DNA of 64,000 nt from an uncultured bacterium (GCA_964567755.1 CAZMNW010000061.1:4890-68889); one strand, 5' to 3'. Counted from the first letter of the stretch, positions 7,696 through 61,114 are shown. Program-made: numbers and translations. Notes: generated by a model from the sequence alone, not told the origin.

Positions 7696-7729
7696 GGGCG
7701 GAGTGCAGCCGAAACATACAGGTGGATGC

Positions 7730-10447
7730 ATGGCCGAGGGAATGATCTCGCGCTACCAGATCCTCGACCGCCTCGGGGCGGGTGGCATGGGCGAGGTGTA
7801 CAAGGCGCTCGATACCAAGATGCGGCGCGAGGTAGCGCTCAAGCTGTTGCCGCCGGCGTACGTGCAGGATGCAGAGCGAGTCGCGCGCTTCAAGCAAGAA
7901 GCGTTCGCCACCTCGGCGCTCAATCATCCCAACATCACCACGATCTTCGAAATCGACGAAGCAGACGGCCATCACTTCATCAGTCTCGAGTACATCACCG
8001 GGCACGCGCTGCGGGTCCTGATTCGCGACGGCAAGCTCGAGCTGCGCCAGATTCTCGAGATCGCCGTGCAGGTGGCCGAAGGGCTGCATGCGGCACACGA
8101 AGCCGGCGTCGTGCATCGTGACCTCAAGCCCGAGAACATCATGGTGCGTCCGGATGGCATCGCCAAGATCCTCGACTTTGGTCTCGCCAAGCTCGGAAGC
8201 GCCCCGGAACCGCCGAGCCTGAGTGACGAAACACTCGTGCAAAGCTCGATGGGCGCCGCGGGACTGACGCAGCCGGGAATGGTTCTCGGCACCGTGGCCT
8301 ATATGTCTCCCGAGCAGGCGCGCGGTATGGAGACGGATCGCAGGTCCGACATCTTCACCTTCGGCAGCATTCTTCTGGAAATGCTGACGCGCAAGCAACC
8401 GTTCCATGCGCCGTCGAGCGTGGAGGTGATGCACGCCATCATTCACGACGCGCCGCGGTCGCTGCAGGAGCTCAGTGGCGGCATTCCGGTCGAGCTGCAT
8501 CGAATCGTGCGCAAAGCGATGGCGAAGGACCCGGGCGAGCGCTATCAGACAGCCAAAGATCTGGCGATCGACATGCGCGCGCTGCAGCGCGAGCTCGAGT
8601 CGGGCAGTGTGAGCGCGGTGCATGCGGCGTTCGCTACGGCACCCGCAGCGGGCACGGCAAAGTCGGCCGCGAGGCGCTCGCTGCGTTGGGTCGCTGGCTT
8701 GGCAACGTTCGCGGTCGTTGGGAGCCTCGTCGTGGTCGTGTTGATGAACCGCAGCTCGCGCGCGCCGGCGCCGGCGCCAGCGCTGCCGCTCGCGATCTCC
8801 AAGATCACCAATACGGGGAAGGCATCGGCGCCCGTGTTTGCACCCCGGGGCCAATTCCTCGCCTACACCAACACGGAGAACGATCAGGTGGCGATCCGGG
8901 TTCGACAGCTCGTCACCGGTACGGAAGTCGAGGCGGTGCCGGCCAAGCCGGACGTGGGTCTCGGCAACATGGCATTTTCTCCCGACGGCAATTGGTTGTT
9001 GTACACCACACGGAAACGCACGGAAGCGATGCGCACGCTGTGGCAAGTGTCTCCCCTCGGCGGCACGCCGCGCGAAGTCATGAAGGATGTCGACGGCGCC
9101 CCATCGTTCTTCTCTGACGGCACGCGTTTCGTTTTTCAACGTGCCAACGAGCAACGGCAGATGCGGTTTTTCATTGCGCCATTCGGCACTGCCGGGGAGC
9201 TGCAGGAGATCCACTCGGCCCCCGAGGGCGCCGTCGGGATTTCGACTCCCATGCTCTCACCCGACGGCGGCGAGATTCTCTATGCCCAGGTCAACGGCGA
9301 CGACGTTCTGCACCCAAGGCTGATGATCAAGACGCTGGATGGAGGTGCGTTGCGTCCCGTGCCTGGCCCGCTGTGGATGCTGCTTGTTGGCTACTGTTGG
9401 GCGCAGGATGGCAAGGGTGTTTATGTTGCCGGCTCGAGTTCCTGGATGGCGCGTCCTCAGATCTGGTACATCGGACTCGCCGAGGACGTCGTGCGCCGGG
9501 TGACGCAGGACCTCGAGGAGCACTCCCAGATCGTGCTGCGTGGCGATGGCAATGCGCTCGCTTCGGTGCGCACCACGGTCGCCGCACAGCTTTGGCACGT
9601 GCCAGTCGAAGGCACGCCGGCCGAGAATGGCGCCCGCGCGCACCAGATCACACGCGGCACTGGCCTCATGGGTTGGCCTCAGGTATCACCGGATGGCAAA
9701 ACTGTGGCGTTGGTTTCCGAAGCGAGCGGCCACATGGACCTGTGGGCGATGGACGTGGATGGATCCAATCTTCGCCAGCTCACGTTCGGCGCGGCGCAGG
9801 ACTTCGGTCAGAGTTGGTCTCCGGATGGCCGCCAGCTCGCATTCGCTTCCGAGAGCGAAGGCAACCTGCAAGTGTGGGTCGTGGACGCGGATGGTCACAA
9901 CCCGCGCCAGCTGACGCAGCTGGGCACGACGAACTATGCGCCTTCCTGGTCTCCGGACGGCCGGTGGATTGCCTTCATTGCATCCGTCGCGGACAGCGCC
10001 TTCCTGTGCAAGATCCCAGCCGAAGGTGGCGATCCCATCTTCATGAGTCGACGCGATCTCGCCATGATTCTGACCCGCTGGTCTCCCAACGGAACTTTCA
10101 TCGCCACCTGGCTGCAGCCGGAAAAGCCGACACCGCAGATCGCGGTGGGGCTCTTTCCCGCAGCCGGTGGCGAGATTCACAAGCTCCCGCTCTTGCCGCG
10201 CAGCCGCTGGACCTTGCTCAGTTTGCACTGGACCCCCGATGGCGACGCGCTCTCTCTCGTCGATCAAGTGCAGGGTGCCTGGGTGGTGCAGCGTGTGCCG
10301 CTCGATGGCAGCGAGCGCACGACCGTGGCTTCTTTCACCGAAGACCAGACGCTCTTCAACTTCGATTGGGTACCGGGTGGCCGCGCTCTCATTGCTCAAC
10401 GCGGGACCATCAGTTCCGACATCGTGTTGCTCGAGAACCTGCCGTAA
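7730..10447 (+). CDS. Hanks-type Ser/Thr kinase with a TM helix and extracytoplasmic TolB/PD40 beta-propellers
   Basis: LGAGGMGEVY, VALK, HRDLKPEN, DFGLAK and GTVAYMSPEQ; one TM helix; repeated FSPDG/WSPDG. Confidence 0.95.
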   Translation: MAEGMISRYQILDRLGAGGMGEVYKALDTKMRREVALKLLPPAYVQDAERVARFKQEAFATSALNHPNITTIFEIDEADGHHFISLEYITGHALRVLIRDGKLELRQILEIAVQVAEGLHAAHEAGVVHRDLKPENIMVRPDGIAKILDFGLAKLGSAPEPPSLSDETLVQSSMGAAGLTQPGMVLGTVAYMSPEQARGMETDRRSDIFTFGSILLEMLTRKQPFHAPSSVEVMHAIIHDAPRSLQELSGGIPVELHRIVRKAMAKDPGERYQTAKDLAIDMRALQRELESGSVSAVHAAFATAPAAGTAKSAARRSLRWVAGLATFAVVGSLVVVVLMNRSSRAPAPAPALPLAISKITNTGKASAPVFAPRGQFLAYTNTENDQVAIRVRQLVTGTEVEAVPAKPDVGLGNMAFSPDGNWLLYTTRKRTEAMRTLWQVSPLGGTPREVMKDVDGAPSFFSDGTRFVFQRANEQRQMRFFIAPFGTAGELQEIHSAPEGAVGISTPMLSPDGGEILYAQVNGDDVLHPRLMIKTLDGGALRPVPGPLWMLLVGYCWAQDGKGVYVAGSSSWMARPQIWYIGLAEDVVRRVTQDLEEHSQIVLRGDGNALASVRTTVAAQLWHVPVEGTPAENGARAHQITRGTGLMGWPQVSPDGKTVALVSEASGHMDLWAMDVDGSNLRQLTFGAAQDFGQSWSPDGRQLAFASESEGNLQVWVVDADGHNPRQLTQLGTTNYAPSWSPDGRWIAFIASVADSAFLCKIPAEGGDPIFMSRRDLAMILTRWSPNGTFIATWLQPEKPTPQIAVGLFPAAGGEIHKLPLLPRSRWTLLSLHWTPDGDALSLVDQVQGAWVVQRVPLDGSERTTVASFTEDQTLFNFDWVPGGRALIAQRGTISSDIVLLENLP

Positions 10448-11190: not shown

Positions 11191-12897
11191 ATGCAGCACG
11201 GAGCAAACGGGCCTCGGGGTTTCTGGAGACGCTGGGTCTTCTCCCTCGATCACAAGACCATTGCCAAGCAATACCTGGTGACTGGGCTCGTCATGGCGAT
11301 CGTCGGCGGCTGGCTTGCCCAGGGAATGCGGGTGCAGCTGGCGTGGCCGTATCGAGATTTCCCGTTCTTCGGTCTCATCGAGCCCGGGCGCTACAACGCG
11401 CTCGTGACCATGCATGGCACCATCATGCTGTTCTGGGTGGCGATGCCGATCTTGCTCGGTGCGTTCGGGAACTTCCTCATCCCGCTCATGATCGGCGCGC
11501 GCGACATGGCGTTTCCGCGCCTCAACATGCTGTCCTTCTGGACCTTTCTGCTCAGTACGCTGGTCCTGCTGGCGTCGTTTTTCGTCGAATCCGGGCCGGC
11601 GGCCGGCGGCTGGACCGCGTATCCGCCTCTGTCGGCCGTGCCCGGCTACACCGGCGTCGATGTTGGCACCGATCTATGGATCGTTGCGGTGGCGCTCGAG
11701 TTTATTTCAGTGTTGATGGGCGGCGTCAACTTCCTGACCACGGCCGTCAACCTGCGCGCCCGCGGGCTCCGCATGATGGACCTGCCGCTCGTGGTTTGGA
11801 TGCTGCTCGTGTCCTCGGTGCTGTTCATGTTGTCGGTGGGCCCATTGATCGCCGGTGCCGCCATGCTCTTCCTCGATCGCAACGCCGGCAGTGGTTTCTT
11901 CGATCCGGCCAAGGGCGGTGACCCGCTGCTGTGGCAGCATCTCTTCTGGTTCTTCGGCCATCCCGAGGTGTACGTCATCCTGCTGCCAGGGCTCGGGATC
12001 GTGGCGGAAGTTCTCACGGCGGGTGCGCGAAAGACCCTCTTCGGCTACACCATGATCGTGTGGGCAGTGATCGTGTCGGGGCTGCTCAGCTTCTTGGTGT
12101 GGTCGCACCATCAGTTCGTGAGCGGGCTCGATCCCCGCTTCGCCATGCCTTTCGCGCTCACCACGATTCTCATCTCCGTGCCGTTCGCCGTGCAGTTGTT
12201 CGCGCTCATCGCCACGCTGTGGCGCGGTTCCATTCGATACTCGCCGGCGATGCTGTTCGCCGTCGGCACCATCGCCACATTTCTCGTCGGCGGCACCACG
12301 GGGATTGTTCTGGGTGCAGCTGCCGCCGACATCTATTTCCACGACACCTATTTCGTCGTCGCACACTTTCATTACACACTTTTCCCCGCGGTCATTCTCG
12401 CCATGCACGCCGGGATCTACCACTGGTTCCCGAAAATGTTCGGGCGTTTGATGAATGCCAGATTGGGGCATGTACACTTTTGGCTGACCTTCGTTTTCTT
12501 CCAGTTGACGTTCATCCCGCAGTTCTTGCTCGGACTCGCGGGGCACCCGCGTCGCGTCGCGGATCCCCTGCAGTTCGATCTGTTGTTGTCCGGGATGCAG
12601 CCATACAACATCGTGTCCACCATCGGCGCGCTGGGCCTGTTCGCGGCGCAAGTGCCGTTCCTGATCAATTTCTGTTGGAGTCTCTGGCGCGGGAAGCATG
12701 CCGGCGCCAATCCCTGGCAGGCCACCACGATCGAGTGGCTGGCTTCTTCGCCACCTCCGCACGACAACTTCCCAGGCGAGGTCGTGGCGGTGCGCGGGCC
12801 CTACGAGTACAGCACTCCCGGAAGTGACCGCGATTGGCTGCCCCAGGGGGAGCTGGAAGGTGCGGATTTGGCAGCGCCCACGGTAGCAGCGCCATGA
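11191..12897 (+). CDS. coxA: Cytochrome c oxidase subunit I (A1-type haem-copper oxidase)
   Basis: DHKTI, TMHGTIM, WFFGHPEVY, WSHHQF and VAHFHYT. Confidence 0.97.
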   Translation: MQHGANGPRGFWRRWVFSLDHKTIAKQYLVTGLVMAIVGGWLAQGMRVQLAWPYRDFPFFGLIEPGRYNALVTMHGTIMLFWVAMPILLGAFGNFLIPLMIGARDMAFPRLNMLSFWTFLLSTLVLLASFFVESGPAAGGWTAYPPLSAVPGYTGVDVGTDLWIVAVALEFISVLMGGVNFLTTAVNLRARGLRMMDLPLVVWMLLVSSVLFMLSVGPLIAGAAMLFLDRNAGSGFFDPAKGGDPLLWQHLFWFFGHPEVYVILLPGLGIVAEVLTAGARKTLFGYTMIVWAVIVSGLLSFLVWSHHQFVSGLDPRFAMPFALTTILISVPFAVQLFALIATLWRGSIRYSPAMLFAVGTIATFLVGGTTGIVLGAAAADIYFHDTYFVVAHFHYTLFPAVILAMHAGIYHWFPKMFGRLMNARLGHVHFWLTFVFFQLTFIPQFLLGLAGHPRRVADPLQFDLLLSGMQPYNIVSTIGALGLFAAQVPFLINFCWSLWRGKHAGANPWQATTIEWLASSPPPHDNFPGEVVAVRGPYEYSTPGSDRDWLPQGELEGADLAAPTVAAP

Positions 12898-23043: not shown

Positions 23044-24525
23044 TCAGCGCTGTGCGAGGCGTGTGGCGATGGCCTCGGCTTCCTTGATGCAAGCATTCAT
23101 CGCGATGCCGCGATAGGAATTGCCCGAAAGATGCAGACCGATGTGCCGTTGGAGAGCGGTGTCGATGCGCGCCAACGTGCGCGCATGACCCACAGGGTAT
23201 TGAGGAATGCCTCGCGGATGACGGATGACGCCAAGGACCTCGGGGTCGCCGTGCAGATTCAAGAGCCGATGCAGCGTGGTGAGCGCGCGCTGCGTGAGCT
23301 GGGCGTCGGTTTCCTCGACAGCGCCGGGGTCGCGTGCACCTCCAATCATCGTGCGCAGCAGCACCTGCCCGTCTCGTGCACGGCCCGGAAAGACCCAGGA
23401 GTCGAAGAGCGTGCCGAGAATCGGCAGTTTCTCGCAGGCTGGTACCAGGAAGCCGAAGCCACGGCTCACATGCTGCAAATCCTGGGCGCGGAAATCGAGG
23501 CACACTACCGCCACCGGGGCTGAAGGGATGCTGACTACCGCGCTCGCCAACTCGGCGTCGAGCGGATGCAGCAGTGCCGCGGCTTTCCATGCCGGGCCTG
23601 CGATCACCACGTCCGTGGCTTCGACACTCTCGCCATCAGGAATCGTCAATCGCCAGCGCGGCTCGCCAAGGTGTGATGCCCCCCGTGCGCCCCCCACAGG
23701 GGCAGGGTCTCCGATCGGCGCAATCGCATCGACCGGTGTGTCCAAGTGCAACCGCGGGCCGAGAGCCTGCACCAAAGCGCGAACGAGCGTTTCCATGCCA
23801 TCGACGAAGGAAGTGAGCGTGCCACCTGGCCCGATGGGACCGCCCGCCGCGCCACGACGATCTCCTTCTCCCCGCGCACCGGCAGTCATGGTCGCGTCCG
23901 GCTCGTCTCTGCTGGCCCGAAGTTCCCGGCGCCGGGCAATCATGGCCTTGAACAAGCCACCGCAACGGCGCTCCATTTCACGCATGCGCGGGAACGCGCA
24001 CTCGAGGCTCAGCGTTCTCGAGTCCCCGGCATAGATCCCGGTCACCATCGCATCGACCAAGACCTCGGCAGCCTCACGGCCGATGCGTCGTGCGGCGAAA
24101 TCGAAAACGGATTCGTCGGCATCTTCCCGTCGCGGGGGTTGCGCCCATTCCAGGAGTACGCGAGCCCTACCGCGCAGGCTCAAGACATCGCTGGTGAGGA
24201 ACTGCGCCGGACGTTGCGGCAGCGCGCGCAAGGCACCGGCGCGCACGATCCAACGAGTGCTCGCGTCACTGCTCGCCTGCACCACCTGAGGCTGCAGTCC
24301 CAGGAACTCGATCAGGCGCGTGGTGGCCGGCTCGTTGTCGAGCCAACCGTTCGGACCCCATTCACACAAGGTGCCGCTACGTCGCTCGCTCCGAATGTTG
24401 CCGCCCGCACGCCCATGGGTCTCGAACACCTGGACGTCGATCCCCAGCCGTTGGAGGTGAAACCCCAAGGCCAAGCCGGAAATGCCGCCGCCCACTACGG
24501 CAACTCGAGTCCGGAGCGTGGCCAT
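23044..24525 (-). CDS. hemG: Protoporphyrinogen oxidase (HemY-type flavoprotein)
   Basis: VGGGISGL FAD motif, EWGPNG, GIYAGD and GNSYRGIAMNACI. Confidence 0.93.
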   Translation of the reverse strand: MATLRTRVAVVGGGISGLALGFHLQRLGIDVQVFETHGRAGGNIRSERRSGTLCEWGPNGWLDNEPATTRLIEFLGLQPQVVQASSDASTRWIVRAGALRALPQRPAQFLTSDVLSLRGRARVLLEWAQPPRREDADESVFDFAARRIGREAAEVLVDAMVTGIYAGDSRTLSLECAFPRMREMERRCGGLFKAMIARRRELRASRDEPDATMTAGARGEGDRRGAAGGPIGPGGTLTSFVDGMETLVRALVQALGPRLHLDTPVDAIAPIGDPAPVGGARGASHLGEPRWRLTIPDGESVEATDVVIAGPAWKAAALLHPLDAELASAVVSIPSAPVAVVCLDFRAQDLQHVSRGFGFLVPACEKLPILGTLFDSWVFPGRARDGQVLLRTMIGGARDPGAVEETDAQLTQRALTTLHRLLNLHGDPEVLGVIRHPRGIPQYPVGHARTLARIDTALQRHIGLHLSGNSYRGIAMNACIKEAEAIATRLAQR

Positions 24526-24579
24526 GCGAACCACCTGCCGAGGTGCGGCGCCAATGCCCTGGGGCTCGTGGCGGCGCGA

Positions 24580-25980
24580 TCAGATCGTGCGGGAAAACGT
24601 CTTCTCGGTGTCCTTATCCTTCAAGTACCGATCGAACGTCATGGCGATGTTGCGGATGAAGACCCGACCCACGCGGGTGACGGCGATCGTTGCAACATCG
24701 AGATGCAGAAAGCCGCTCTGCTCATGTGCGCGCAGGCCTTCGAGTTCGGCGGCGAAATAGGTGCCGAAGTCGAGTCCGAAGCGCCGCTCGACGTCCTGGA
24801 GATCGAGATGGAAGTTGCACATGATCTGAGTGATCACGTGCCGGCGAATGGCGTCGTCCGACGACAGCAGCACGCCACGCAGCACCGGCAGGCGATCGGC
24901 GCGCAACGAATCGTAATAGGAATCTTGGTTCTTGTGGTTCTGGATGTAGGCGCCCTGAAGGTCGCCGATGCCGGAAACACCGAAAGCGATGGCATCGGTC
25001 GCGGGCTTGACCGTGTAGCCCATGAAGTTGCGGTGCAGCACCCGGTTCTGCAAGGCGCGGGCCATCTCGTCGCTGGGCAACGCGAAGTGATCCATGCCGA
25101 TCTGCACGTAGCCGGCATCCGTGAACTTGCGCACGCCGAGGAGGTAGAGCTCCACCTTCAGCTCCGGCGGCGGCAGCATGTCTTCGGTCATGACGTTCTG
25201 GTTGCCGGATTTCCATGGTACGAAGGCGAAGCTGTACATCGCCACGCGCTCGGGACGCATGCCGAGGACCGAGTCGAGCGTGCGCTCGAACGTGACGCAG
25301 GTCTGCAGCGGCAAACCATAGATGAGATCGACGTTGATGCTGTCGAAGCCCTGGCGGCGACTGTAGTCGAAGAGCTCGCGCGTGCCGGGCTCGTCCTGAT
25401 AGCGGCTGATGATGGCTTGCACCTCGGGGGTGAAGTCCTGCACCCCCATGCTGAGCCGGTTGAAACCGAACTCGCGCAAGACATCGATATGCTCCTGCGT
25501 GGTGACGCGTGGATCGACCTCGATGGCGACCTCGGCCTCGGGAAGGATCTCGAAGCGGTCGAGGACGGTTTGATGCAACTGGCGCATTTCCGCCGGTGAG
25601 TAATAGGTGGGTGTGCCCCCGCCCCAGTGGTACTGCGCCACCTGGCGCCGGTGCGGCAGATGCTTGCTCACGAGGTCGATCTCGCGCTGGAGGTATCCCA
25701 GGTACTCGAGTGCGCGCTCGCGTTTCTTGGTGATGACTACGTGGCAGCCGCAGAAGGTGCAACGCTCGTGACAGAAGGGCAGGTGAAAATACAGCGACAG
25801 CGGTTCGTTCGCGTGCGTGTCCGCCTCGGCGAGCTTGCCCTGGTAATCGGCTTCGCCTACGCCGGCATGAAACTCCACCGCTGTGGGATAGGACGTGTAG
25901 CGCGGCCCTGGCCGATCGAACCTGCGGATCAGCTCCGCTGTCAGCTCGGGCTCTGGAGGATGCGCCTGCGAGGGTCTCAT
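24580..25980 (-). CDS. hemN: Oxygen-independent coproporphyrinogen III oxidase
   Basis: GPRYTSYPTA, HLPFCHERCTFCGC, WGGGTPT and RNFMGY. Confidence 0.96.
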   Translation of the reverse strand: MRPSQAHPPEPELTAELIRRFDRPGPRYTSYPTAVEFHAGVGEADYQGKLAEADTHANEPLSLYFHLPFCHERCTFCGCHVVITKKRERALEYLGYLQREIDLVSKHLPHRRQVAQYHWGGGTPTYYSPAEMRQLHQTVLDRFEILPEAEVAIEVDPRVTTQEHIDVLREFGFNRLSMGVQDFTPEVQAIISRYQDEPGTRELFDYSRRQGFDSINVDLIYGLPLQTCVTFERTLDSVLGMRPERVAMYSFAFVPWKSGNQNVMTEDMLPPPELKVELYLLGVRKFTDAGYVQIGMDHFALPSDEMARALQNRVLHRNFMGYTVKPATDAIAFGVSGIGDLQGAYIQNHKNQDSYYDSLRADRLPVLRGVLLSSDDAIRRHVITQIMCNFHLDLQDVERRFGLDFGTYFAAELEGLRAHEQSGFLHLDVATIAVTRVGRVFIRNIAMTFDRYLKDKDTEKTFSRTI

Positions 25981-26098
25981 GGATGTCACGGCTTCTTTGC
26001 GATCCGGGTGAGCACACTGGAGCAACTCTCAGATGGAATATACGGACCCGGCTTGCCGACGACCACCCCGTGAGGGGTGCGGGTGCGGGCTCTGGCCC

Positions 26099-35746: not shown

Positions 35747-36802
35747 TCATTCCTCGCGCGGGCGCCACGAGTGCACGTGCTCGACCAGGCGGCGCACATT
35801 GTCCACGGGTGTTTCGGGAAGAATCCCATGACCGAGATTGAAGATGTGTCCGGGAGCATTCCCGGCACGCTCGAGCACGCGGTCGGCGCGCTCGCGCAGC
35901 GCCGGCCACGGCGCGAACAGCGTCGCCGGATCGAGGTTGCCTTGGACGGCGAAGTCGGGGCCGAGGGTGCGGCGAGCCAGATCGAGAGGCACGCGCCAAT
36001 CGAGGCTCAGCACGTCGGCGCCGCAGAGGCGCAAGTGATCGGCCGCGCCCCAAGCGTCGCGGGCGAAATAGATGATGGGCGCTGCACCCGCAGTGGCGCT
36101 GTGGACGTCGGCGATCATCTGTTGCACGTGCGGCAACGCCCAGCGCGCGAAATCATCCGGGTCGAGCAGACCCGCCCAGGTGTCGAAGATCTGCACGGCC
36201 TGGGCGCCGGCTTCGATCTGCGCCACGAGGTACGCCGCGTTGGTCGCCGCGAGCTTTTGCAGCAATCGCTCTCCCGTCACCGGATCCTCGTACAGGAGGC
36301 GCTTCATGCGCGTGAACTCTTTGGCACCACCGCCCTCGACGAGATAGTTGGCGAGCGTCCACGGCGCGCCACAAAAGCCGATGAGCGCCGTCTCGGGCGC
36401 GAGCTCGCTGCGCAAGCGGCGCAGGGCTTCGAGGACGTAGGGCACCGAGGCCTGCGGATCGGGAATGCGCAAGGACTCGACCTGAGCGCGCGTACGCACG
36501 GGGTCGGGGATCAGCGGACCCGGAGCGAATTCGATGTGCACGCCCATGCCTTCGACGGGGACCAAGATGTCGCTGAACAGAATCGCCGCATCGACGCCGA
36601 GAGCGCGCACGGGCTGCAACGTCACCTCGACCGCGAGATCCGGGTTCTTGCACATGTCGAGGAAGCCGTGGCGCTCCCGGATGGCGCGGTACTCCGGCAT
36701 GTAGCGCCCGGCCTGGCGCATGAACCACACGGGCCGGTGTGACGTCGGGAGTCGGCCGCACGCGCGCAGGAACGGGACCTCGCGCTCCGGTTGGGTGCTC
36801 AT
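35747..36802 (-). CDS. hemE: Uroporphyrinogen decarboxylase
   Basis: PVWFMRQAGRYMPEY, FSDIL, QGNLDP and NLGHGI. Confidence 0.97.
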   Translation of the reverse strand: MSTQPEREVPFLRACGRLPTSHRPVWFMRQAGRYMPEYRAIRERHGFLDMCKNPDLAVEVTLQPVRALGVDAAILFSDILVPVEGMGVHIEFAPGPLIPDPVRTRAQVESLRIPDPQASVPYVLEALRRLRSELAPETALIGFCGAPWTLANYLVEGGGAKEFTRMKRLLYEDPVTGERLLQKLAATNAAYLVAQIEAGAQAVQIFDTWAGLLDPDDFARWALPHVQQMIADVHSATAGAAPIIYFARDAWGAADHLRLCGADVLSLDWRVPLDLARRTLGPDFAVQGNLDPATLFAPWPALRERADRVLERAGNAPGHIFNLGHGILPETPVDNVRRLVEHVHSWRPREE

Positions 36803-38109
36803 GCGTGGATCTCCTCGAGGGCAGCGCCGATGGCGCGCACAGTCTCGTCGACCACGGGCTCATCGTGGGCGGCACTCAAGAAACACGCTTCGAACTGCGA
36901 AGGCGCGAGCAAGACGCCGCGGCGCAACAAGGCTTGGTGAAAGCGGGCGAACAGCTTGGTGTCGCAGCGCGCGGCCTCGACCCAGCTGCGCACGGGCCCG
37001 GCGTGGAAGAACAACGTCCACATCGACCCGATGTGCTGCACGCAAGCGTGGAATCCGAGGCGTTGCAGGTGCGCTTCGATGCCGGTCACGAGCCGCTGCG
37101 TCCGCGCCTCGAGACGCGTGTAGAGATCCGGGGTCGCCGCAATGAGCTCGAGCATGGCCAGGCCGGCGGCGACAGCGACCGGATTCCCCGACAGCGTGCC
37201 GGCTTGGTAGACCGGGCCGCTGGGGGCGATCATCTCCATGAGCTCGCGCCGCCCGCCGTAAGCACCGATCGGCAACCCGCCGCCGATGATCTTGCCGAAG
37301 GTGACGAGATCGGCGCGAATGCCGAGCCGCTCCTGCGCTCCTCCGGCTGCGAGACGGAACCCGGTCATCACCTCGTCGAAAAGAAGCAAAGCCTCGTTGG
37401 CGTCGCACAGCTCGCGCAGTTTCTGCAAGAAAAGCCGTCTCGGCAGCACGACACCCATGTTGCCGACGACGGGCTCGACGATGACCGCGGCGATGGCGCC
37501 ATGGTTGGCGTCGAAGTACTCGGCGACGAGATCGGCGTCGTTGAATTCGGCGACCAGCGTATCCGCGGCCACTCCGGTCGGCACACCGGGGCTGTCGGGG
37601 AGCCCGAGCGTCACCACGCCGGACCCGGCCTTGATGAGGAAGGAATCGGCGTGACCGTGATAGCAACCGGCGAACTTCACGATCTTGGAACGGCCGGTGT
37701 AGGCGCGGGCCAGGCGAATGGCGGACATCGTGGCCTCGGTGCCGGAGTTCACCAACCGGACCATGTCGACGCCGGGGACCATGGCGCAGATGCGTTCGGC
37801 GATCTCGATCTCGGCTGCGGTGGGTATGCCGAAGCTGGTGCCGCGCGCAGAGGCGGACCGCACGGCTTCGACGATGCGCGGGTGCGCGTGACCGAAGAGG
37901 AGAGGTCCCCAGGAGCCGATGTAGTCGATGTAGCGCCGCCCGTCTTCGTCCCAGATGGTAGAGCCTTCGCCTCGAGCGGCGAAGATCGCTTCACCACCGA
38001 CGGCGCGGAAGGCGCGCACGGGAGAATTCACGCCTCCTGGAATCCAGTGGAGCGCGCGGTTCATGAGCTCGCGACTGCGCGGGCCGGTAGTGTCGTCCAC
38101 GGCAACCAT
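36799..38109 (-). CDS. hemL: Glutamate-1-semialdehyde 2,1-aminomutase
   Basis: PGGVNSPVRAF, NSGTEA, FDEVMTGFR, GKIIGGG and QAGTLSGNP. Confidence 0.97.
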   Translation of the reverse strand: MVAVDDTTGPRSRELMNRALHWIPGGVNSPVRAFRAVGGEAIFAARGEGSTIWDEDGRRYIDYIGSWGPLLFGHAHPRIVEAVRSASARGTSFGIPTAAEIEIAERICAMVPGVDMVRLVNSGTEATMSAIRLARAYTGRSKIVKFAGCYHGHADSFLIKAGSGVVTLGLPDSPGVPTGVAADTLVAEFNDADLVAEYFDANHGAIAAVIVEPVVGNMGVVLPRRLFLQKLRELCDANEALLLFDEVMTGFRLAAGGAQERLGIRADLVTFGKIIGGGLPIGAYGGRRELMEMIAPSGPVYQAGTLSGNPVAVAAGLAMLELIAATPDLYTRLEARTQRLVTGIEAHLQRLGFHACVQHIGSMWTLFFHAGPVRSWVEAARCDTKLFARFHQALLRRGVLLAPSQFEACFLSAAHDEPVVDETVRAIGAALEEIHA

Positions 38110-38234
38110 CCCATTGCGCCAACGCGCGTGCATCGTTCGCGGCCAGAGGCCGGTTCACCCGCGCGTGCAGTCGGAATCTATCACAGGATCTCGAGTACCG
38201 GGAGGTCAGAGCGGGGTGTGCCGGCCGGCGTTCT

Positions 38235-40103: not shown

Positions 40104-41099
40104 TTACCCCGCCCATCCCTGCAAGTGCTGCATGACGATCTCCACCAGAGCGGTGACGTGATCGGAGCGATCGTTGAGCGCCGGGATGTAGCGCAAGCGC
40201 TGGCCACCGGACTGCAAGAAGCCCTGTCGGCTGCGAATGGCGATCTCTTCGAGCGTCTCGAGACAATCGACGGCGAAGCCCGGGCAAATGACGTCGACGC
40301 TCGCGACCCCCTTGCGCGCCCACTCTTGGAGTGTCGGATCGGTATACGGTTGCAGCCATTCCTCGCGCCCGAAGCGCGACTGATATGCGAGCGCAAAGCG
40401 GTGCGCATCGAGGCCCAGAGCCGTGGCGAGACGCGCCGCAGTCTGCTCGCACTGGCCGCGGTAGGGGTCGCCGGCCGCGTCGTAGCGTTTGGGTAAGCCA
40501 TGGAACGAGACGAGCAGGCGATCGGAAGCGCCGTGCTGCTCCCAGAACTCACGCACGCTGCGCGCGAGAGCCTCGATGTATCGACCCTGATCGTGGTAGC
40601 CAAAGATCGTGCGCATTTCCGGCACACGCCGCCAACCCGCGAGCGCTCGCGTCACGGCGTCGAACGCGGAGCCCGTGGTCGGGGACGAGTACTGTGGAAA
40701 CAGCGGCAGCACGATCAGGTGCTGGCAGCCGGCTGCACGCAACTGTTCGAGTGCGCGCGCCATGCTCGGATTGCCGTACCCCATGCCGATGGCGACTTCG
40801 ACCGGGTTGGTGACCTGGAGGCGCAGCGCGCCGGCGAGCGCGGTGGCGAGATCCTGCATGATGCAGAGGAGCGGCGACCCCTCGTTGGTCCAGATGCTGG
40901 CATACGCGTGCGCCGAGCGCCGCGGTCGCAATGGCAAAATGATCAGATACAGGATGGGAAGCCAAATGGCGCGTGGCAGGTCGACGACACGCCGGTCGGA
41001 AAGGAACTGCCGCAGATAACGTCGGACCGCCGCGGCCGTGGGTGCGTCCGGCGTTCCGACGTTGGTGAGCAGGACGCCAATTCGAGCCTGCATTCTCAT
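40104..41099 (-). CDS. hemH: Ferrochelatase
   Basis: LTNVGTPD, LFPQYS, SFHGLP, YQSRFG, WLQPYT and DCLETLEEI. Confidence 0.96.
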   Translation of the reverse strand: MRMQARIGVLLTNVGTPDAPTAAAVRRYLRQFLSDRRVVDLPRAIWLPILYLIILPLRPRRSAHAYASIWTNEGSPLLCIMQDLATALAGALRLQVTNPVEVAIGMGYGNPSMARALEQLRAAGCQHLIVLPLFPQYSSPTTGSAFDAVTRALAGWRRVPEMRTIFGYHDQGRYIEALARSVREFWEQHGASDRLLVSFHGLPKRYDAAGDPYRGQCEQTAARLATALGLDAHRFALAYQSRFGREEWLQPYTDPTLQEWARKGVASVDVICPGFAVDCLETLEEIAIRSRQGFLQSGGQRLRYIPALNDRSDHVTALVEIVMQHLQGWAG

Positions 41100-41306
41100 C
41101 TCCCACCGTGACGTTCCGGGGCCCCCGCGCCTGCGCCGCCACCCGACCGAGCGGGCGTCGACACGATTGGCGGGCGGCTTCGCCACCGCCGGGCATTCTC
41201 GCACATGGGGGGTGTCCCTTGACGGCCCCAGATTCGTGCCGTTTACTCGCTCCTCGAAATGCCGGCGAGATCGGACCGCACATTCATCGATTTCAAGGAG
41301 TCGTTC

Positions 41307-42383
41307 GTGAACCAGCAAGGCCGCGATTCACATTTTCTGCGGCGCCGCGGGCCAGCCGTGTTGGCGGCGATGGCGCTGTGGAACGCGTGCGCCAGCGGCG
41401 CCGGGGCAGAGGACCCGCCTGACCGCAAGGAAACGCATCTTCGTAACGTTCGCCAACTCACTTTCGGCGGCGAGAATGCCGAGGCCTACTGGTCACACGA
41501 TGGCAAGCAGCTCATCCTGCAATCGACCCGCGACAGCCTCGGGTGCGATCAGATCTTCGTCATGAACCCGGAGGGTTCGAACACGCGCATGGTGTCCACG
41601 GGCAAAGGACGCACGACGTGCGCCTATTTCTTCCCGAACGGCAAGCGCATCCTGTATGCATCGACCCATGCCGCGAGCCCCGACTGCCCGCCAGCCCCGG
41701 ACTTCTCCAAGGGTTACGTGTGGAAGCTGTACCCGACGTATGATTTGTACGCTGCCGATCCTGACGGGACCAATCTCTTGCGTCTCACCACGACCGAGGG
41801 CTACGACGCCGAAGCGACGATTGCCCCCGATGGCAGCCGTGTCATCTTCACCTCCGAGCGCGACGGCGATCTCGACCTCTACACCATGCGGCTCGACGGC
41901 ACCGACGTCCGCCGGCTCACCACCGAGCTGGGCTACGATGGCGGCGCGTTCTTCTCGCCCGACAGCAAGAAGATCGTCTGGCGCGCATCGAGACCACGCA
42001 GCGCCGAGGACAAGGCGGCGTATACCGCGCTGCTGCACGACCACACCATTCGCCCGGGGGCGCTGGAGATTTTCACCGCCAACGCCGATGGCAGCGCTGC
42101 GCGCCAGTTGACGCAGAATGACGCTGCCAATTTCTGCCCGTTCTTCTTCCCGGACGGGAAGCGAATCATCTTCGCCTCCAACATGGCGAATCCCCAGGGC
42201 CGGAACTTCGACCTGTGGATGATGAACGTCGACGGCTCGGGCCTCGAGCAAGTGACATTCGATCCGACCTTCGACGGGTTCCCCATGTTCAGTCCGGATG
42301 GTAAGCGGTTGGTGTTCGCCAGCAACCGCAACTCGAAGGGTCGCACCGACACGAACGTCTTCCTCGCCGATTGGGTCGAGTGA
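41307..42383 (+). CDS. Secreted TolB-like PD40-repeat protein
   Basis: GTG after AAGGAG; signal peptide; ENAEAYWS, YDAEAT and repeated FSPDG. Confidence 0.88.
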   Translation: MNQQGRDSHFLRRRGPAVLAAMALWNACASGAGAEDPPDRKETHLRNVRQLTFGGENAEAYWSHDGKQLILQSTRDSLGCDQIFVMNPEGSNTRMVSTGKGRTTCAYFFPNGKRILYASTHAASPDCPPAPDFSKGYVWKLYPTYDLYAADPDGTNLLRLTTTEGYDAEATIAPDGSRVIFTSERDGDLDLYTMRLDGTDVRRLTTELGYDGGAFFSPDSKKIVWRASRPRSAEDKAAYTALLHDHTIRPGALEIFTANADGSAARQLTQNDAANFCPFFFPDGKRIIFASNMANPQGRNFDLWMMNVDGSGLEQVTFDPTFDGFPMFSPDGKRLVFASNRNSKGRTDTNVFLADWVE

Positions 42384-46345: not shown

Positions 46346-47362
46346 TTATTCCAAGCGCAACGCGTCGAAATAGAGGCTGACTGGTTGCGGGGGATCGACA
46401 GTGAAGATCACGATCCGGGCGATGTGCGTCAGGTCCATTTCGCGGCCTCGAGGCGTTCGGCGCACGTCCGCGAGCGGAATGCGGAACAGATTGGCGCCCG
46501 GGGAGACGGTCAAAGGCCGGTTGAAACGGTCGTCGTATTGCTGGTTGTGCACGGCGTCGTCGATCCGGAGCACAATCTCGACCGGCGTCTCGAGTTGCGA
46601 AAAGACTTCGAAGACCAAAGCTTGTTGACGGCTCCAATCGCGCACCGGTTCCTTGAGGGCGAAGCACGGATAGTTGCCGCCGCGAAATGTCATATGGCCC
46701 ACCATGTCGTCGGTTTGCCCTGATTCCCAACCGGAGGGTCGCGGCGTGCGCTCGAGATCCGAGTCCCTCATTTGGACGAAGTACGTTTCCCAGCGTGCAT
46801 CGAAATCACATAGACGGGGGAAAGCGGCATCACGTTGCATAGTGGCCACGACTACGGCGCCGACGGGCGCGAAGGCCAACACGTACAGCAGCATCGCGCT
46901 CCCGAGCAGCGCGGTGCGTGCACCGCGCCGACGCACGAGGTGACCGCCCGCATCACGGACGCAGGCCCACTCGGCCGACAGCATCCCCGCGGCACCAAGA
47001 CCATTGCGCACCAGATCGCCGAGACTGGCGTCGCGCGGCAAGATGATCTGCACCATCTCGATGCCAAGCCCGCACGCCATGGTGAAACCGAAGGCCCAAA
47101 GTGAGGCGCGCAACGGCGAACAGGCGCCCCCAGTCCACGCCAGGATCAGTTGCAAGAACACGAGCGCGAGGTACCCGGAGACCACGGCATGGCCGGCATC
47201 GAAGAGCGATTTCCATAACATCGTCTCGGCGGGGGGGCGCAGCAATGCCACCAGAGCCACGAGGGCGCCGGCGGAGGCGATCCAAAACAGAACGCGCTCG
47301 GGTTGCTTCGGCCCAAGAGTCACGAGTGCTGGGCCTCCCGCAGCAACCCCAGGTTTCTGCAT
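46346..47362 (-). CDS. VanZ-like membrane protein with a C-terminal carbohydrate-binding-like beta-sandwich
   Basis: DAGHA, GLGIEMVQIILPRDASLGDLVRNGLG; C-terminal DWS..ALVFEV...LRIDD...YFDALRLE. Confidence 0.7.
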   Translation of the reverse strand: MQKPGVAAGGPALVTLGPKQPERVLFWIASAGALVALVALLRPPAETMLWKSLFDAGHAVVSGYLALVFLQLILAWTGGACSPLRASLWAFGFTMACGLGIEMVQIILPRDASLGDLVRNGLGAAGMLSAEWACVRDAGGHLVRRRGARTALLGSAMLLYVLAFAPVGAVVVATMQRDAAFPRLCDFDARWETYFVQMRDSDLERTPRPSGWESGQTDDMVGHMTFRGGNYPCFALKEPVRDWSRQQALVFEVFSQLETPVEIVLRIDDAVHNQQYDDRFNRPLTVSPGANLFRIPLADVRRTPRGREMDLTHIARIVIFTVDPPQPVSLYFDALRLE

Positions 47363-47375
47363 TCCTGAAACGGTG

Positions 47376-48782
47376 TCACGGGTTCGGCAGAGATCTGATC
47401 TTCTTCTCGAGGCCGGCCACGGTGCTCTCGCTGTACTGGCCGGGGGGGAGCGACTGGGCCAGCTGCAGCGCGTCTTGCAATGTCGAGCGCGCGGCGCCCA
47501 ACTCTCCCTTGCTGCGGTAGAGGTCGGCGAGAGTTTGCAAGACGCGCAGCTTTCGTGGTCCGTAGATCCTGTCGAGAGCACGACGCGATGCGGCAATGCC
47601 TTTGTCCCAATGCTGCAGCTCCTTGTATGTGACCGCGAGTCGTGCGGGCGGGTTGTAATCATCCGGGAAGTCACGTTCCGATGCTTCCAGCATTGGAATG
47701 GCCCGCGCGGGTTCTCCGAGGGCGATGTACGCCGAAAGTCGGTGCGCGTCGAACACGGTGCGTCCCTCGGCTGTCTTGGCGAGCGCCGCTTCGTGCTCGA
47801 GGAAGCGCGCCCACCGGCTGGCCATGTCGCGGGCTCCGAGGCTGTCGTTGGCATCCGTGCGCGCGTCGACCAACACGGCATAGAGTCCGGAACGGTCGTC
47901 GGCGGCCACGGAAACCTGCGCGTCGTCCACGACCGCACGCGCAGCCGATTCGAACTCCGCGACCAGCGCGGCGCGGTGCGCGTCCTCATGCGGCAACGAC
48001 AGCGCCGCATCCAGGCCGATGGCGGCGACGTTCACCGCCGAGGCGGTCGAGCGCAGTTTCGGCATTGCCGCACGCGCGGTCTCGGTACAGGTCGCGTAGT
48101 CGCGGCTTTCGAATGCGGCGAAGAGGAGGGATTCCGTGGCGCGGGCGTACGCGGGCCAGCCGCGCGGCGCTTTCGCGACCGCCTGACGATAGAACGCCAC
48201 CGCATCATGGTTCTTGCCCTCGCCATACAAGTCGTCCGCGCGCGCGAGGAGTGCGTCGGCGCTCATCCCGGCATCCAGCTTCGCAGCGTCGGGCGCAGTG
48301 CTCGGAACAGGCGGGGTTCCCTGCCGGTGTTGCAGGAGCGCGGCGTGACTTTCGTCGAGCATCGCGTTCAGCTGGGTCACGGTCGCACCCCCCACCCAGC
48401 GCAGGACGACCGTTTCACGATCGGGATCGACAATGAAAAAGGAAGGCAGCGCCTGCACGGCGTACTGCTGGCGGAAGAAAGCGTTCTCGCGCTTCTCAGT
48501 GTCGATCTCGAGCCAGACGAACCGCCCGGCCTGTCGAGACAGGCCGGCATCGGTGAAGACGAAGGCCCGCATCGAACGGCAGGTGTGTCACCAGGGCGCC
48601 CACGCCTCGATGAAGAGCGGCAGCTTGGCCGCCCGGGCTCGTGCCAGGGCGCCTGCATAGTCGTCCTGGATGAACGGCAGCACTTTTTTTGCCGCGCCCG
48701 CCGGTTGCGGCGCGCCGGCTGCCGTTCCCTGACTCGCGAACAACACCAGAAGCAGCGACAGCGATCGCTGGATCCGTGTCAT
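47376..48782 (-). CDS. Exported thioredoxin-fold/TPR protein, probable selenoprotein (UHTC)
   Basis: ORFs 48588..48782 and 47376..48572 are in frame and separated only by TGA 48588-48590 in WAPW-TGA-HTC. Signal peptide; TPR-like helical C-terminus. Confidence 0.8.
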
Positions 48783-59028: not shown

Positions 59029-59057
59029 TTGACCGGTGAGTGCTGCGGCGGCATGAT
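59029..59057 (+). promoter_or_regulatory. Putative sigma70 promoter of the disulfide oxidoreductase gene
   Basis: TTGACC-17 bp-CATGAT, 21 nt upstream of the ATG. Confidence 0.55.
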
Positions 59058-59078
59058 GCAGTCAGAGGTGCGAAGATC

Positions 59079-59729
59079 ATGATGCTACAGGAACGAGATC
59101 GTCAAGCGGTGCGCCAGCGGCTCGCGGACTTGGCCAAGCCCGTGCGACTCGTCAATTTCACCCAGGAACTGGAGTGCGAGTTCTGCAGGGAGACGCGGAC
59201 GCTGCTCGAGGAAGTCGTATCCCTCTCGGACAAAGTGAGCTTGGAGGTTTACAACTTCCAGACCGACCGCGATCAACGCGATGCCTACGGCATCGACAAG
59301 ATTCCTGCCACGGTGGTGATGAGCGAGAATGACCTAGGGATCCGTTTCTACGGCATTCCTTCCGGTTACGAGTTCGCCTCGCTCCTGGACACGATGTTGT
59401 TGGTCGCAAGCGGCGACAGTGGTTTGGCGCCGGAAACACGCACGCGACTGGCCCAGCACCAGAAGCCGCTGCATCTCGAGGTGTTCGTCACTCCGACTTG
59501 ACCGCACTGTCCGCGAGCCGTGCTGCTCGCCAACGCCTTCGCGATCGAAAGCATGCTCGTGCGCGTCGACTGCATCGAGGCCACGGAATTCCCGCACCTG
59601 GCGCAGCGCCATCGCGTCATGGGTGTGCCGAAGACAGTGGTGAACGCCACCGGCGGTGTCGAAGGTGCCATGCCCGAGTCGCATTACCTCGACGCCGTGC
59701 TCGCCGCCGCCGAAGCGCAAGCCTCCTGA
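59079..59729 (+). CDS. Two-domain glutaredoxin-like protein disulfide oxidoreductase (PDO/AhpF-NTD-like), probable selenoprotein (UPHC)
   Basis: CEFC in domain 1. In-frame TGA 59499-59501 in FVTPT-TGA-PHC, continuing to GVPKTVVN. GIPSGYEF motif. Confidence 0.88.
59513..59530 (+). promoter_or_regulatory. Candidate bacterial SECIS hairpin
   Basis: GCGAGC-CGTGCT-GCTCGC; loop begins 17 nt after the UGA, with G then U near its 5' side. Confidence 0.6.
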
Positions 59730-59793: not shown

Positions 59794-60723
59794 TCACTTC
59801 TTCCATGCACGAATCTTTGTCGAAATCACGGCGTCAGCCGCCGCGTCGCGCAACTCGTCTCCGAGACCGGTCGCGCAACCGGCGTAGGATTTTTCCTCGA
59901 CAATCTCGACGCGCGAGAACCCCGCGTCGCGGACCATCTGGACGTAGTCGTCGCGGAGTGCGGCTCCTGCGACGCAGCCGACGTAGGCCTCGACGGAGGC
60001 CTTCACCGCCGGCGGCAGCGGGCGCAGGAGCACGAGATCGCTCACCACCAGTCGGCCGCCGGAGCGCAACACGCGCAGGGACTCGCGAAAGACCTGCGGC
60101 TTGTCCGGAGACAAGTTGATGACGCAGTTCGAGATGATGACGTCGACGCTGGAGTCGGCCACTGGCAGATGCTCGATCTCGCCGAGACGGAACTCGATGT
60201 TGTCGATTCCCACCTTGCGCGCATTCAGCCGCGCGCGTTCGATCATGTCGGGTGTCATGTCGACGCCGAGAACGCGACCCGAGGGCCCGACCTCGCGGGC
60301 GGCGAGGAACGCATCCATCCCTGCCCCGGAGCCCAAGTCGAGCACGGTCTCGCCGGCGCCGAGGTGCGCGTGTGCCAGGGGATTGCCGCAGCCGAGCCCG
60401 AGGTTGGCACCCTCGGGGATGGCCCGAGCCTGTTCGGGGCTGTAGCCCAACTGCTCCGGATTCTCGACCACGCTGGTGCCGCAGCAGCCAGGGGACTCGG
60501 CGCGCGCAATCTGAGCGTACCTGTCGCGGACCAGACGATGGATGTCCATCTCCGAGGTCAGCGCGATCTCTTGTCCAGGCGCCGGGGCAGAGGCGTCGCA
60601 ACAAGCCGACGCCGTATCTTTGGTGACGGCTGGCGCATCCGTAGTGTCGCTGCAACATGTTGGGGCGCAACAAGACTCGTTGGCGTCCGTCGTGTCCTTC
60701 ACGTGTGAATTCGTCGCATCCAT
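59794..60723 (-). CDS. arsM: Arsenite S-adenosylmethionine methyltransferase with a Cys-pair-rich N-terminal extension
   Basis: GCCG, ANLGLGCGNP, LDLGSGAG, IISNCVINL and YVGCVAGA. Confidence 0.93.
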   Translation of the reverse strand: MDATNSHVKDTTDANESCCAPTCCSDTTDAPAVTKDTASACCDASAPAPGQEIALTSEMDIHRLVRDRYAQIARAESPGCCGTSVVENPEQLGYSPEQARAIPEGANLGLGCGNPLAHAHLGAGETVLDLGSGAGMDAFLAAREVGPSGRVLGVDMTPDMIERARLNARKVGIDNIEFRLGEIEHLPVADSSVDVIISNCVINLSPDKPQVFRESLRVLRSGGRLVVSDLVLLRPLPPAVKASVEAYVGCVAGAALRDDYVQMVRDAGFSRVEIVEEKSYAGCATGLGDELRDAAADAVISTKIRAWKK

Positions 60724-60738
60724 GATTCTTCCTCCTTC

Positions 60739-61056
60739 TCAGAGTTCCTCGATGAGTGCCTGCAGCCGGCGGACGGTGGCGTCGTCGAGGCAGTAGCACA
60801 CGTGCGGCGGTTCCACTTCGCCGCGGATGAGACCCGCTTCCTTGAGCACCTTGAGATGCTGCGACACCGTGGACTGTGCCCGGGGTAGCTCATCGACCAA
60901 GTCGCCGCAGACGCACTCACCCCGCTGGCGCAGCGTGCGCAGGATTCGCAGTCGCAACGGATGTGCGATCCCGCGGGCGAGGCGCGCCAACTCCAGCTCC
61001 TCGCTGCTCCAACCGCTGGCGCGGCGAGCCGGTGTGTCTGGTCGCGAACGGCCCAT
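60739..61056 (-). CDS. arsR: ArsR/SmtB metalloregulator
   Basis: [34 protein letters not shown] and CYC. Confidence 0.93.
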
Positions 61057-61077
61057 GTGGCCACCCCCTTCAATCGT

Positions 61078-61114
61078 CAATCGTAAATATACGATTGGAT
61101 GCCGCGTGGGTCAA
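61078..61114 (-). promoter_or_regulatory. sigma70 promoter of arsR-arsM with overlapping palindromic operator
   Basis: Minus strand TTGACC-17-TATATT. CAATCGTA-AATA-TACGATTG (61078-61097) overlaps the -10 box. Confidence 0.8.

Follow-up and report, generated by a model that had tools for sequence, protein, structure and literature searches.

A gene on the minus strand of a 64,000-nucleotide stretch of DNA from an uncultured bacterium (GCA_964567755.1, CAZMNW010000061.1:4890-68889; the whole stretch is called the window here) very probably encodes an exported selenoprotein. The predicted protein has a thioredoxin fold with selenocysteine (Sec, U) in its active site and a tail of tetratricopeptide repeats (TPR), and it would be a thiol/selenol-disulfide oxidoreductase. 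The identification of the in-frame TGA at 48590-48588 as a selenocysteine codon is strongly supported, because the codon alternates with Cys codons among relatives, because selection on an RNA hairpin after it is found in the TGA forms only, and because a member of the PDO_seleno_TRX family is encoded 11 kb away. A preliminary description of this DNA had proposed selenocysteine in an apparently exported thioredoxin-TPR protein, and the proposal is borne out by these three lines of evidence, the first of which extends over about 150 loci.

Gene and protein domains

The gene and its protein have the following parts.

47376..48782, minus strand: complete coding sequence, 468 codons with selenocysteine at codon 65, plus the terminal TGA
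48717..48782, minus strand: signal-peptide-like N-terminus, about residues 1-22 (MTRIQR, then SLSLLLVLFA, then SQGTAA)
48588..48590, minus strand: TGA read as selenocysteine, U65
48579..48602, minus strand: redox motif W61-A-P-W-U65-H-T-C68, where thioredoxin helix alpha-1 begins, from translation, homologue alignment and a structure model
48354..48668, minus strand: thioredoxin-fold domain, residues ~39-143, including P113, from the Pfam families Thioredoxin_7 and Thioredoxin
47379..48269, minus strand: all-alpha TPR-like domain, residues ~172-468 (about 290 residues), from Pfam TPR families, a structure model and Foldseek

The reading frame is continuous except for one TGA. Translation of 48782..47376 gives 468 codons with a single internal TGA, in the context PLFIEAWAPW-TGA-HTCRSMRAFVFTD (core EAWAPW-TGA-HTCRSM), and the TGA that closes the gene at 47378-47376 is a true stop codon. 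A mechanical listing of open reading frames (ORFs) splits the gene into an 87-residue ORF that ends at the internal TGA and a 398-residue ORF that starts at Met71, six codons on. The preliminary description had joined these two in-frame ORFs across WAPW-TGA-HTC-RSM into a protein of about 468 residues with a signal peptide, a thioredoxin fold and TPR-like helices, and each of these parts was recovered here. Alignments to full-length Cys homologues of 440-480 residues cover 92-99% of the window protein.

The N-terminus of the protein looks like a signal peptide of the Sec (secretory) type. It reads MTRIQRSLSLLLVLFASQGTAAG, with basic residues followed by a hydrophobic run. Among 130 related loci whose upstream frame is complete, a simple hydropathy test finds the same pattern of n-region and h-region in 98%, and a few of these loci have lipoprotein-like signals.

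Profile scans with Pfam and NCBIfam, for which Cys was put in place of the TGA residue, identify both domains. Thioredoxin_7 (PF13899) matches residues 39-120 with 40.5 bits (cut-off 27), Thioredoxin (PF00085) matches residues 52-143 with 28.2 bits (cut-off 23.5), and TPR_12, TPR_8, TPR_2, TPR_14, and TPR_19 all match within residues 175-446. The features expected of a thioredoxin are all present: the profile match exceeds its cut-off, helix alpha-1 has a CxxC-type motif at its N-terminus, and the Pro loop is conserved. Cys68, at the resolving position, and P113 are invariant across the family alignment, and P113 is presumed from its position to be the cis-Pro of the fold. The TPR domain contains the invariant motifs PDDYNPPARL, YGPR, and ADDRS. 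NCBIfam has no family-level model for the window protein; the best matches are generic thioredoxin and DsbD models far under cut-off, and the scores for TsoB (NF045694, 26.2 bits against a cut-off of 805) and WAxxUGC_long (NF041054, 12.3 bits against 300) are also well below threshold.

A structure model of a homologue has the same two-domain organization. AlphaFold2 was applied to the full-length Cys homologue P0007, which is 53-54% identical to the window protein, and the model has a mean predicted local distance difference test score (pLDDT) of 90.8 and a predicted template modeling score of 0.87. The first 30 residues are disordered or of low pLDDT, the thioredoxin fold occupies residues 41-154, and after a short linker an unbroken stack of helix pairs with pLDDT above 90 runs to the C-terminus. 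The redox motif lies between a strand (60-65) and a helix (70-79). Among solved structures, the sequences nearest to the thioredoxin domain are 2kuc, a "putative disulphide-isomerase" (E 3e-17), and the C-terminal domain of DsbD (E 2e-9). In Foldseek searches the C-terminal part best matches TPR superhelices. The only match to both domains is 3qou (Escherichia coli YbbN/CnoX), and it is weak (template modeling scores 0.20/0.32, root-mean-square deviation 25 Å).

Some members of the family have lost the redox motif and kept the TPR domain. In P0195 the corresponding region reads PLWSHFSRWM, and in P0257 it reads ASWDHSGRS. These two proteins suggest that the TPR part has a function independent of redox chemistry.

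Distribution of TGA and Cys forms

Protein databases contain two kinds of relatives, full-length proteins with Cys at the TGA position and shorter proteins that begin just after it. Among 5.8 billion proteins searched, 2403 relatives were identified, of which the 120 best were inspected. About 65 of these are 435-480 residues long, with a hydrophobic N-terminus and the motif W-A-P/T/K-W-C-H-T/S-C, and about 50 are 377-407 residues long and all start with M-R/K-A-F/Y-V-F-T-D, which corresponds to Met71, the first start codon that a gene caller can use after the TGA. All of the full-length proteins among the best 120 have Cys at the TGA position. A HMMER scan of 1.84 billion cluster representatives gave 277 clusters at E <= 1e-30, and the best 150 of them include 53 that begin at the position of Met71 and 65 Cys forms of full length. 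The presence of Met71-start proteins beside full-length Cys forms is, as read from these alignments, the classic signature of a selenoprotein family whose selenocysteine members have been mis-called.

The DNA of related loci shows which codon stands at this position. Two sets were collected, the 80 best loci from bacterial assemblies with one genome per species, and 80 metagenome loci for which the seed was a Cys form, chosen in order to gather Cys controls. The species-representative set has the in-frame TGA in 70 of 80 loci and TGC or TGT in 9. The metagenome set has the TGA in about 70 of 80 loci and Cys in 5, despite its Cys-form seed. Taken together, TGA is present at the same codon in ~140 of 160 loci and TGC or TGT in ~14, giving a ratio of selenocysteine to Cys forms among close relatives of about 10:1. 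In the TGA forms the codon is preceded in the same frame by a conserved segment (LPFIxDDY...FVEAWAPW) and followed by HTCRSM. The UGA is thus aligned with Cys in homologues and has coding conservation on both sides, as is looked for in a selenoprotein. The homologue alignment that the preliminary description had called for shows the alternation between Cys and selenocysteine.

The family is widespread among soil bacteria and is found in several phyla. Taxa to which the records are assigned include Candidatus Krumholzibacteriia, Eisenbacteria, Thermoanaerobaculia, other Acidobacteriota, Vicinamibacteria, Terriglobales, Holophagales, and a Udaeobacter. The closest relative among the fetched loci, L001, is a TGA form from a Krumholzibacteriia metagenome-assembled genome (MAG) and is 84% identical. 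Another TGA form, L006, is on a complete Eisenbacteria chromosome (OY970178.1). TGA is not reassigned and is still a stop codon in these organisms, because it terminates 48 of 141 family genes and the window gene ends in the same way.

The hairpin after the UGA

The sequence that follows the UGA forms a long hairpin, which is the proposed selenocysteine insertion sequence (SECIS). The 71-75 nucleotides (nt) from the UGA fold into one structure with a minimum free energy (MFE) of -32.7 to -33.4 kcal/mol and pair probabilities of 0.99. The elements in this region are listed with nucleotides counted from the U of the UGA as 1.

48525..48583, minus strand: proposed bacterial SECIS, a long imperfect hairpin, nt 8-66, from folding and family comparison
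48552..48557, minus strand: its apical loop UUCACC, nt 34-39, 30 nt past the UGA, from folding
48526-48547, minus strand: palindrome CCGGCCTGTC-GA-GACAGGCCGG, starting 40 nt past the UGA, a structure in which the 3' arm of the proposed SECIS pairs differently

Folding of related loci one by one gave the same long hairpin in essentially every TGA form. In 115 of 116 TGA-form sequences the apical loop lies 28-31 nt from the UGA, and the loops are 4-6 nt long, mostly UCAC (50 sequences) or UUCACC (35), with UUCACU (5) and close variants making up the rest. Published criteria for bacterial SECIS elements are a spacing of 16-37 nt, a loop of 3-9 nt, an upper stem of 4-16 bp, and an MFE of -7.5 kcal/mol or lower (PMC13188914). 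The hairpin falls within these limits for spacing, loop size, stem, and energy.

Base pairing in the hairpin is better conserved in TGA forms than in Cys forms. When a 22-pair consensus was scored on the natural, ungapped codon alignment, 82% of cells in the TGA forms and 60% in the Cys forms had the pair. When the partners were slid by 1-3 columns as a control, pairs formed in 36-53% of cells. Double-sided, compensatory changes are found at column pairs 9-60, 18-53, 24-48, and 27-45.

Two controls that hold the protein constant were used, because the hairpin region also encodes conserved residues. For the first, synonymous recodings were sampled from the codon usage of the family itself and the 66 nt after the codon were folded, with the following results.

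TGA forms (n=116): MFE -30.7 kcal/mol, synonymous recodings -24.1, mean z -1.87
Cys forms (n=10): MFE -22.8 kcal/mol, synonymous recodings -22.6, mean z -0.11

The z score is below -1.645 in 62% of the TGA forms, and the two forms differ with p = 1.5e-6 (Mann-Whitney test). The second control was codon choice. Arg72 is encoded by AGG in 75 of 116 TGA forms (65%), whereas in the rest of these genes only 5.7% of Arg codons are AGG; this codon is used because its A pairs with the U of the Leu81 codon. Cys forms mostly have CGN at this position. Similarly, Val75 is GTC in 106 of 116 TGA forms, compared with 56% elsewhere. Selection on the hairpin at the RNA level, in the TGA forms only, is strongly supported.

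One Cys form, L046 (6187-6260), with the rare AGG codon for Arg and the greater part of the hairpin retained (MFE -26.5), has the look of a recent conversion from selenocysteine to Cys.

The long hairpin changes the view of the region taken in the preliminary description, in which the closer hairpins were considered weak and a perfect 10-bp hairpin, CCGGCCTGTC/GACAGGCCGG, was noted at a greater distance from the UGA than is typical of a SECIS. This palindrome is present as described, and its stem is stable, with -18.1 kcal/mol when folded alone, but it is very improbable as the functional SECIS. Its loop would lie about 50 nt from the UGA, outside the published range of 16-37 nt (PMC13188914), and the best structure that contains it reaches -30.2 kcal/mol against -33.4 for the long hairpin, so that its ensemble probability is about 0.003. 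The palindrome is the strongest local hairpin at that place among 116 family sequences, for which the mean is only -7.5 kcal/mol, and the other 115 TGA forms do not have it. By this comparison it is specific to the window and not conserved, and it probably has no functional role. A covariance analysis of the downstream hairpin had also been suggested. For the long hairpin it gives modest support, with covariation at 5 of 22 pairs; the palindrome shows no conservation.

An invariant 7-bp helix, GCCGGRC/GUCUGGC, lies just 3' of the main hairpin (alignment columns 61-79, 48530..48512, minus strand). It was the sole output of RNAalifold and falls inside codons for AGRFVWL. Nothing is concluded from it because it has no covariation.

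Probable selenocysteine decoding by the organism

The window contains a second gene with an in-frame TGA.

59040-59729, plus strand: second in-frame TGA gene, 229 residues with CEFC and TPT-U-PHC motifs, formed by joining two ORFs; TGA at 59499-59501

The preliminary description had pointed to a second, independent TGA, and it is found at 59499-59501 in the context VFVTPT-TGA-PHCP. The 229-residue protein scores 270 bits against TIGR02187, PDO_seleno_TRX (cut-off 185), which is an already catalogued selenoprotein family (PMC13188914). This gene, 11 kb from the one studied here, makes it very probable that the organism decodes selenocysteine.

A hairpin is also predicted after the TGA of the PDO_seleno_TRX gene (59499-59568, plus strand), with an apical loop CUUC about 35 nt downstream. 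In these two single-sequence folds the loops, CUUC and UUCACC, are both pyrimidine-rich and lack the consensus G. A pyrimidine-rich loop may be a lineage-specific type of SECIS loop.

Mechanism and alternative explanations

The proposed mechanism begins with recoding of the UGA at 48590-48588 to selenocysteine. The signal would be a SelB-type stem-loop within the coding sequence, at nt 8-66 with its apical loop at nt 34-39. The product would be one chain of 468 residues, in which a Sec-type signal peptide is followed by a fold like DsbD-gamma and Thioredoxin_7 with the motif W-U-H-T-C and then by a TPR superhelix about 290 residues long. Once the protein has reached the periplasm, Sec65 would act as the attacking nucleophile and Cys68 as the resolving residue, as in the chemistry of the family. 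The TPR domain may hold a protein substrate or partner, so that the protein would resemble a chaperedoxin of the CnoX/YbbN kind, but outside the cytoplasm. The direction of electron flow and the substrates of the oxidoreductase are points that we infer, and the protein might plausibly take part in handling the disulfides of Cys-rich proteins that are secreted.

Several observations weigh against an exported selenoprotein. The genes selA, selB, and selD and a tRNA-Sec were not found in the 64-kb window, and ARAGORN found no tRNA-Sec in the window or in the flanks of 160 related loci. The consensus model of the bacterial SECIS requires a G among the first two nucleotides of the apical loop (PMC13188914), and the loops UCAC and UUCACC have none there; a subset of bacterial SECIS elements, however, do not fit the consensus model (PMC13188914). 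No Rfam family, SECIS included, matched anywhere in the window at gathering thresholds. The hairpin also encodes the near-invariant residues VFTD and AL, which confounds its conservation, and true covariation is modest. RNAalifold did not recover the long hairpin from the in-frame alignment, because several sequences, including that of the window, use a 3' arm shifted by 1 nt; therefore the named structure was scored, and thermodynamics were evaluated sequence by sequence with recoding and Cys-form controls. The non-redundant Cys-form controls number only 10. Signal peptides were called by a hydropathy heuristic only. Clustering of neighbors in 67 loci gave no conserved gene neighbor, the commonest being present in no more than 6 loci, and no DsbD- or CcdA-like partner among the neighbors hints at the redox direction.

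Two alternatives concern how the TGA is read. It might be a true stop, with the gene either a pseudogene or a source of two products, one a secreted peptide of 64 residues and the other a cytoplasmic TPR protein of 398 residues from Met71. Gene callers and NCBI annotation do give such a 380-400-residue product (for example a "thioredoxin family protein" of 388 residues), and TGA is a normal stop in these genomes. This explanation is hardly credible, since ~140 independent loci conserve the 64 codons before the TGA in its frame, the Cys forms have Met71 just as invariantly although it is an internal residue there, and the hairpin selection is specific to TGA forms. In addition, as judged from the P0007 model, the thioredoxin fold of a product starting at Met71 would lack both strand beta-1 and its active site. 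Alternatively, the same hairpin could recode the UGA but direct the insertion of Cys or another residue by an opal suppressor. Such a role has been proposed for tRNA-Cys of the SelC* type, in some anaerobes, and for suppressor allo-tRNAs of Acidobacteria, which are described on acidobacterial contigs (PMC5389517). That the selenocysteine synthesis genes were not found in the window, and that the loop is without a canonical G, would be in keeping with it. It is nevertheless improbable. The selC* tRNA-Cys has been found in Firmicutes, Thermodesulfobacteria, Nitrospirae, and Proteobacteria and not in the lineages of this family (PMC5389517). The recoded residue is the catalytic first position of UxxC, the classic selenocysteine site, and the PDO_seleno_TRX gene in the window has the same kind of TGA. 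It is also hard to explain why a costly signal would be kept in ~140 lineages for the sake of Cys, when TGC would suffice.

A further alternative accepts the selenoprotein but assigns it another function, such as a periplasmic peroxide or sulfenic-acid reductase, mainly a redox-switched holdase chaperone like CnoX, or a handler of a small selenium, sulfur, or metal species. Peroxidase-type chemistry favors selenocysteine, which also withstands irreversible over-oxidation (PMC13188914). The combination of thioredoxin and TPR is that of CnoX/YbbN, and 3qou is the sole two-domain match. P0195 and P0257 have dispensed with the redox motif, and there is no operon partner in the 67 loci. However, the nearest relatives of the thioredoxin domain, 2kuc and DsbD-gamma, are disulfide-exchange domains, and the invariance of Cys68 and of the cis-Pro is what is expected for dithiol exchange. 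A different function is therefore rather unlikely, and an exported thiol/selenol-disulfide oxidoreductase is the preferred explanation.

Neighboring genes

A gene for a membrane protein of 338 residues (46346-47364, minus strand) starts 13 nt past the stop codon of the thioredoxin-TPR gene and is probably co-transcribed with it. Its product has no Pfam match, and by eye the N-terminal half is VanZ-like. An apparent tandem paralogue of the thioredoxin-TPR gene proved to be a clustering artefact, in which upstream ORFs run into the N-terminal part of the gene.

An arsenite methyltransferase gene (59794-60723, minus strand; NF008823, 332 bits) with a Cys-rich N-terminus adjoins the PDO_seleno_TRX gene. 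ArsM families include selenocysteine forms, and this copy is without an internal TGA. It is followed by a small ORF (60739-61080, minus strand) that resembles an ArsR-type regulator by eye.

Heme biosynthesis genes are scattered over the window (23044-26025, 35747-38133, and 40104-41318, all on the minus strand) and include a HemN-like radical SAM protein, a flavoprotein like amine oxidase and protoporphyrinogen oxidase, uroporphyrinogen decarboxylase, a class-III aminotransferase, and ferrochelatase. Cytochrome oxidase subunit I is encoded at 11191-12897, and a Ser/Thr kinase fused to PD40 repeats at 7442-10447.

Novelty and significance

The recoding mechanism is ordinary, and what appears to be uncatalogued is the TPR fusion and the family itself. 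No entry in a catalogue of 119 selenoprotein families mentions TPR (PMC13188914), the deep-Sep paper makes no mention of a TPR-fused thioredoxin selenoprotein, and literature searches for a TPR-fused selenoprotein gave nothing relevant. Selenoproteins with a UxxC motif in a thioredoxin fold are the commonest kind in bacteria, exported DsbA-, DsbG-, and TlpA-like proteins included (PMC13188914). An extracytoplasmic selenocysteine thioredoxin with a TPR scaffold had been called unusual in the preliminary description, and this appears to hold for the fusion but not for export. It may be that genes of this kind were already included in earlier screens, within the wide category "thiol:disulfide interchange protein (PF13098)".

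A wider interpretation is possible but tentative, and we put its chances at less than even. The protein may belong to an uncatalogued extracytoplasmic "seleno-chaperedoxin" family that is among the commonest selenoproteins of aerobic soil phyla (Acidobacteriota/Thermoanaerobaculia, Eisenbacteria/Krumholzibacteriia, and Vicinamibacteria) and is perhaps read by means of a lineage-specific, pyrimidine-rich SECIS loop (UUCAC/CUUC) without G. If true, such a loop would mean that the RNA specificity of SelB is altered. The natural variants, more than 100 in number, with the right spacing and no G in the loop would make a useful test set for models of the bacterial SECIS and for SelB specificity.

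Recognition of the family has consequences for annotation and physiology. About half of its clusters in public protein databases start at Met71 and so lose the signal peptide and the active site, and the names given to these entries are "TPR protein" or "thioredoxin family protein". Hundreds of gene calls in soil MAGs would be put right by a family model that allows for selenocysteine. The existence of the family suggests that selenocysteine is used regularly in Acidobacteriota and in soil bacteria of the Eisenbacteria type, and an exported thioredoxin-TPR architecture is added to the selenoproteome. If confirmed, a periplasmic counterpart of the thioredoxin and TPR chaperedoxin would be a new element of envelope redox control and proteostasis.

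Comparison with known systems

The thioredoxin domain of the window protein is nearest in sequence to DsbD-gamma and 2kuc, which are periplasmic and have a WCxxC-type active site. In contrast to the window protein, they occur as single domains or belong to an electron transporter of the membrane, they have no TPR, and they use Cys rather than selenocysteine.

CnoX/YbbN is similar in overall architecture. It has an N-terminal thioredoxin fold and a C-terminal TPR domain, as does the window protein, and the Joint Genome Institute calls some members of the family "thioredoxin-like negative regulator of GroEL". However, CnoX is cytoplasmic and docks on GroEL, while the window family has signal-peptide-like N-termini. 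The TPR domain of the window family is longer, and its thioredoxin domain resembles DsbD-gamma and not Trx1. YbbN is not among the 60 best sequence matches in the Protein Data Bank, and neither the cytoplasmic location nor the homology that would define a CnoX is found. Judged by these matches, the window protein is not a member of the CnoX/YbbN family.

The selenoproteins most similar in their use of selenocysteine are the catalogued UxxC proteins with a thioredoxin fold, listed as Thioredoxin (PF00085), "thiol:disulfide interchange protein" (PF13098), DsbA-like, DsbG-like, and TlpA-like (PMC13188914, Table 1). They share with the window protein the selenocysteine in the first position of UxxC, the existence of Cys orthologues, and a SECIS within the coding sequence just past the UGA, and several of them are exported. 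The window protein differs in having a C-terminal TPR domain of about 290 residues, a best Pfam match to Thioredoxin_7, and a loop without the consensus G. The PDO_seleno_TRX protein comes from the same organism and has the same UxxC logic (TPT-U-PHC), and its hairpin loop (CUUC) is likewise pyrimidine-rich and without G. Unlike the protein described here, it belongs to a curated family of cytoplasmic proteins with two thioredoxin domains, and it has neither a signal peptide nor TPR.

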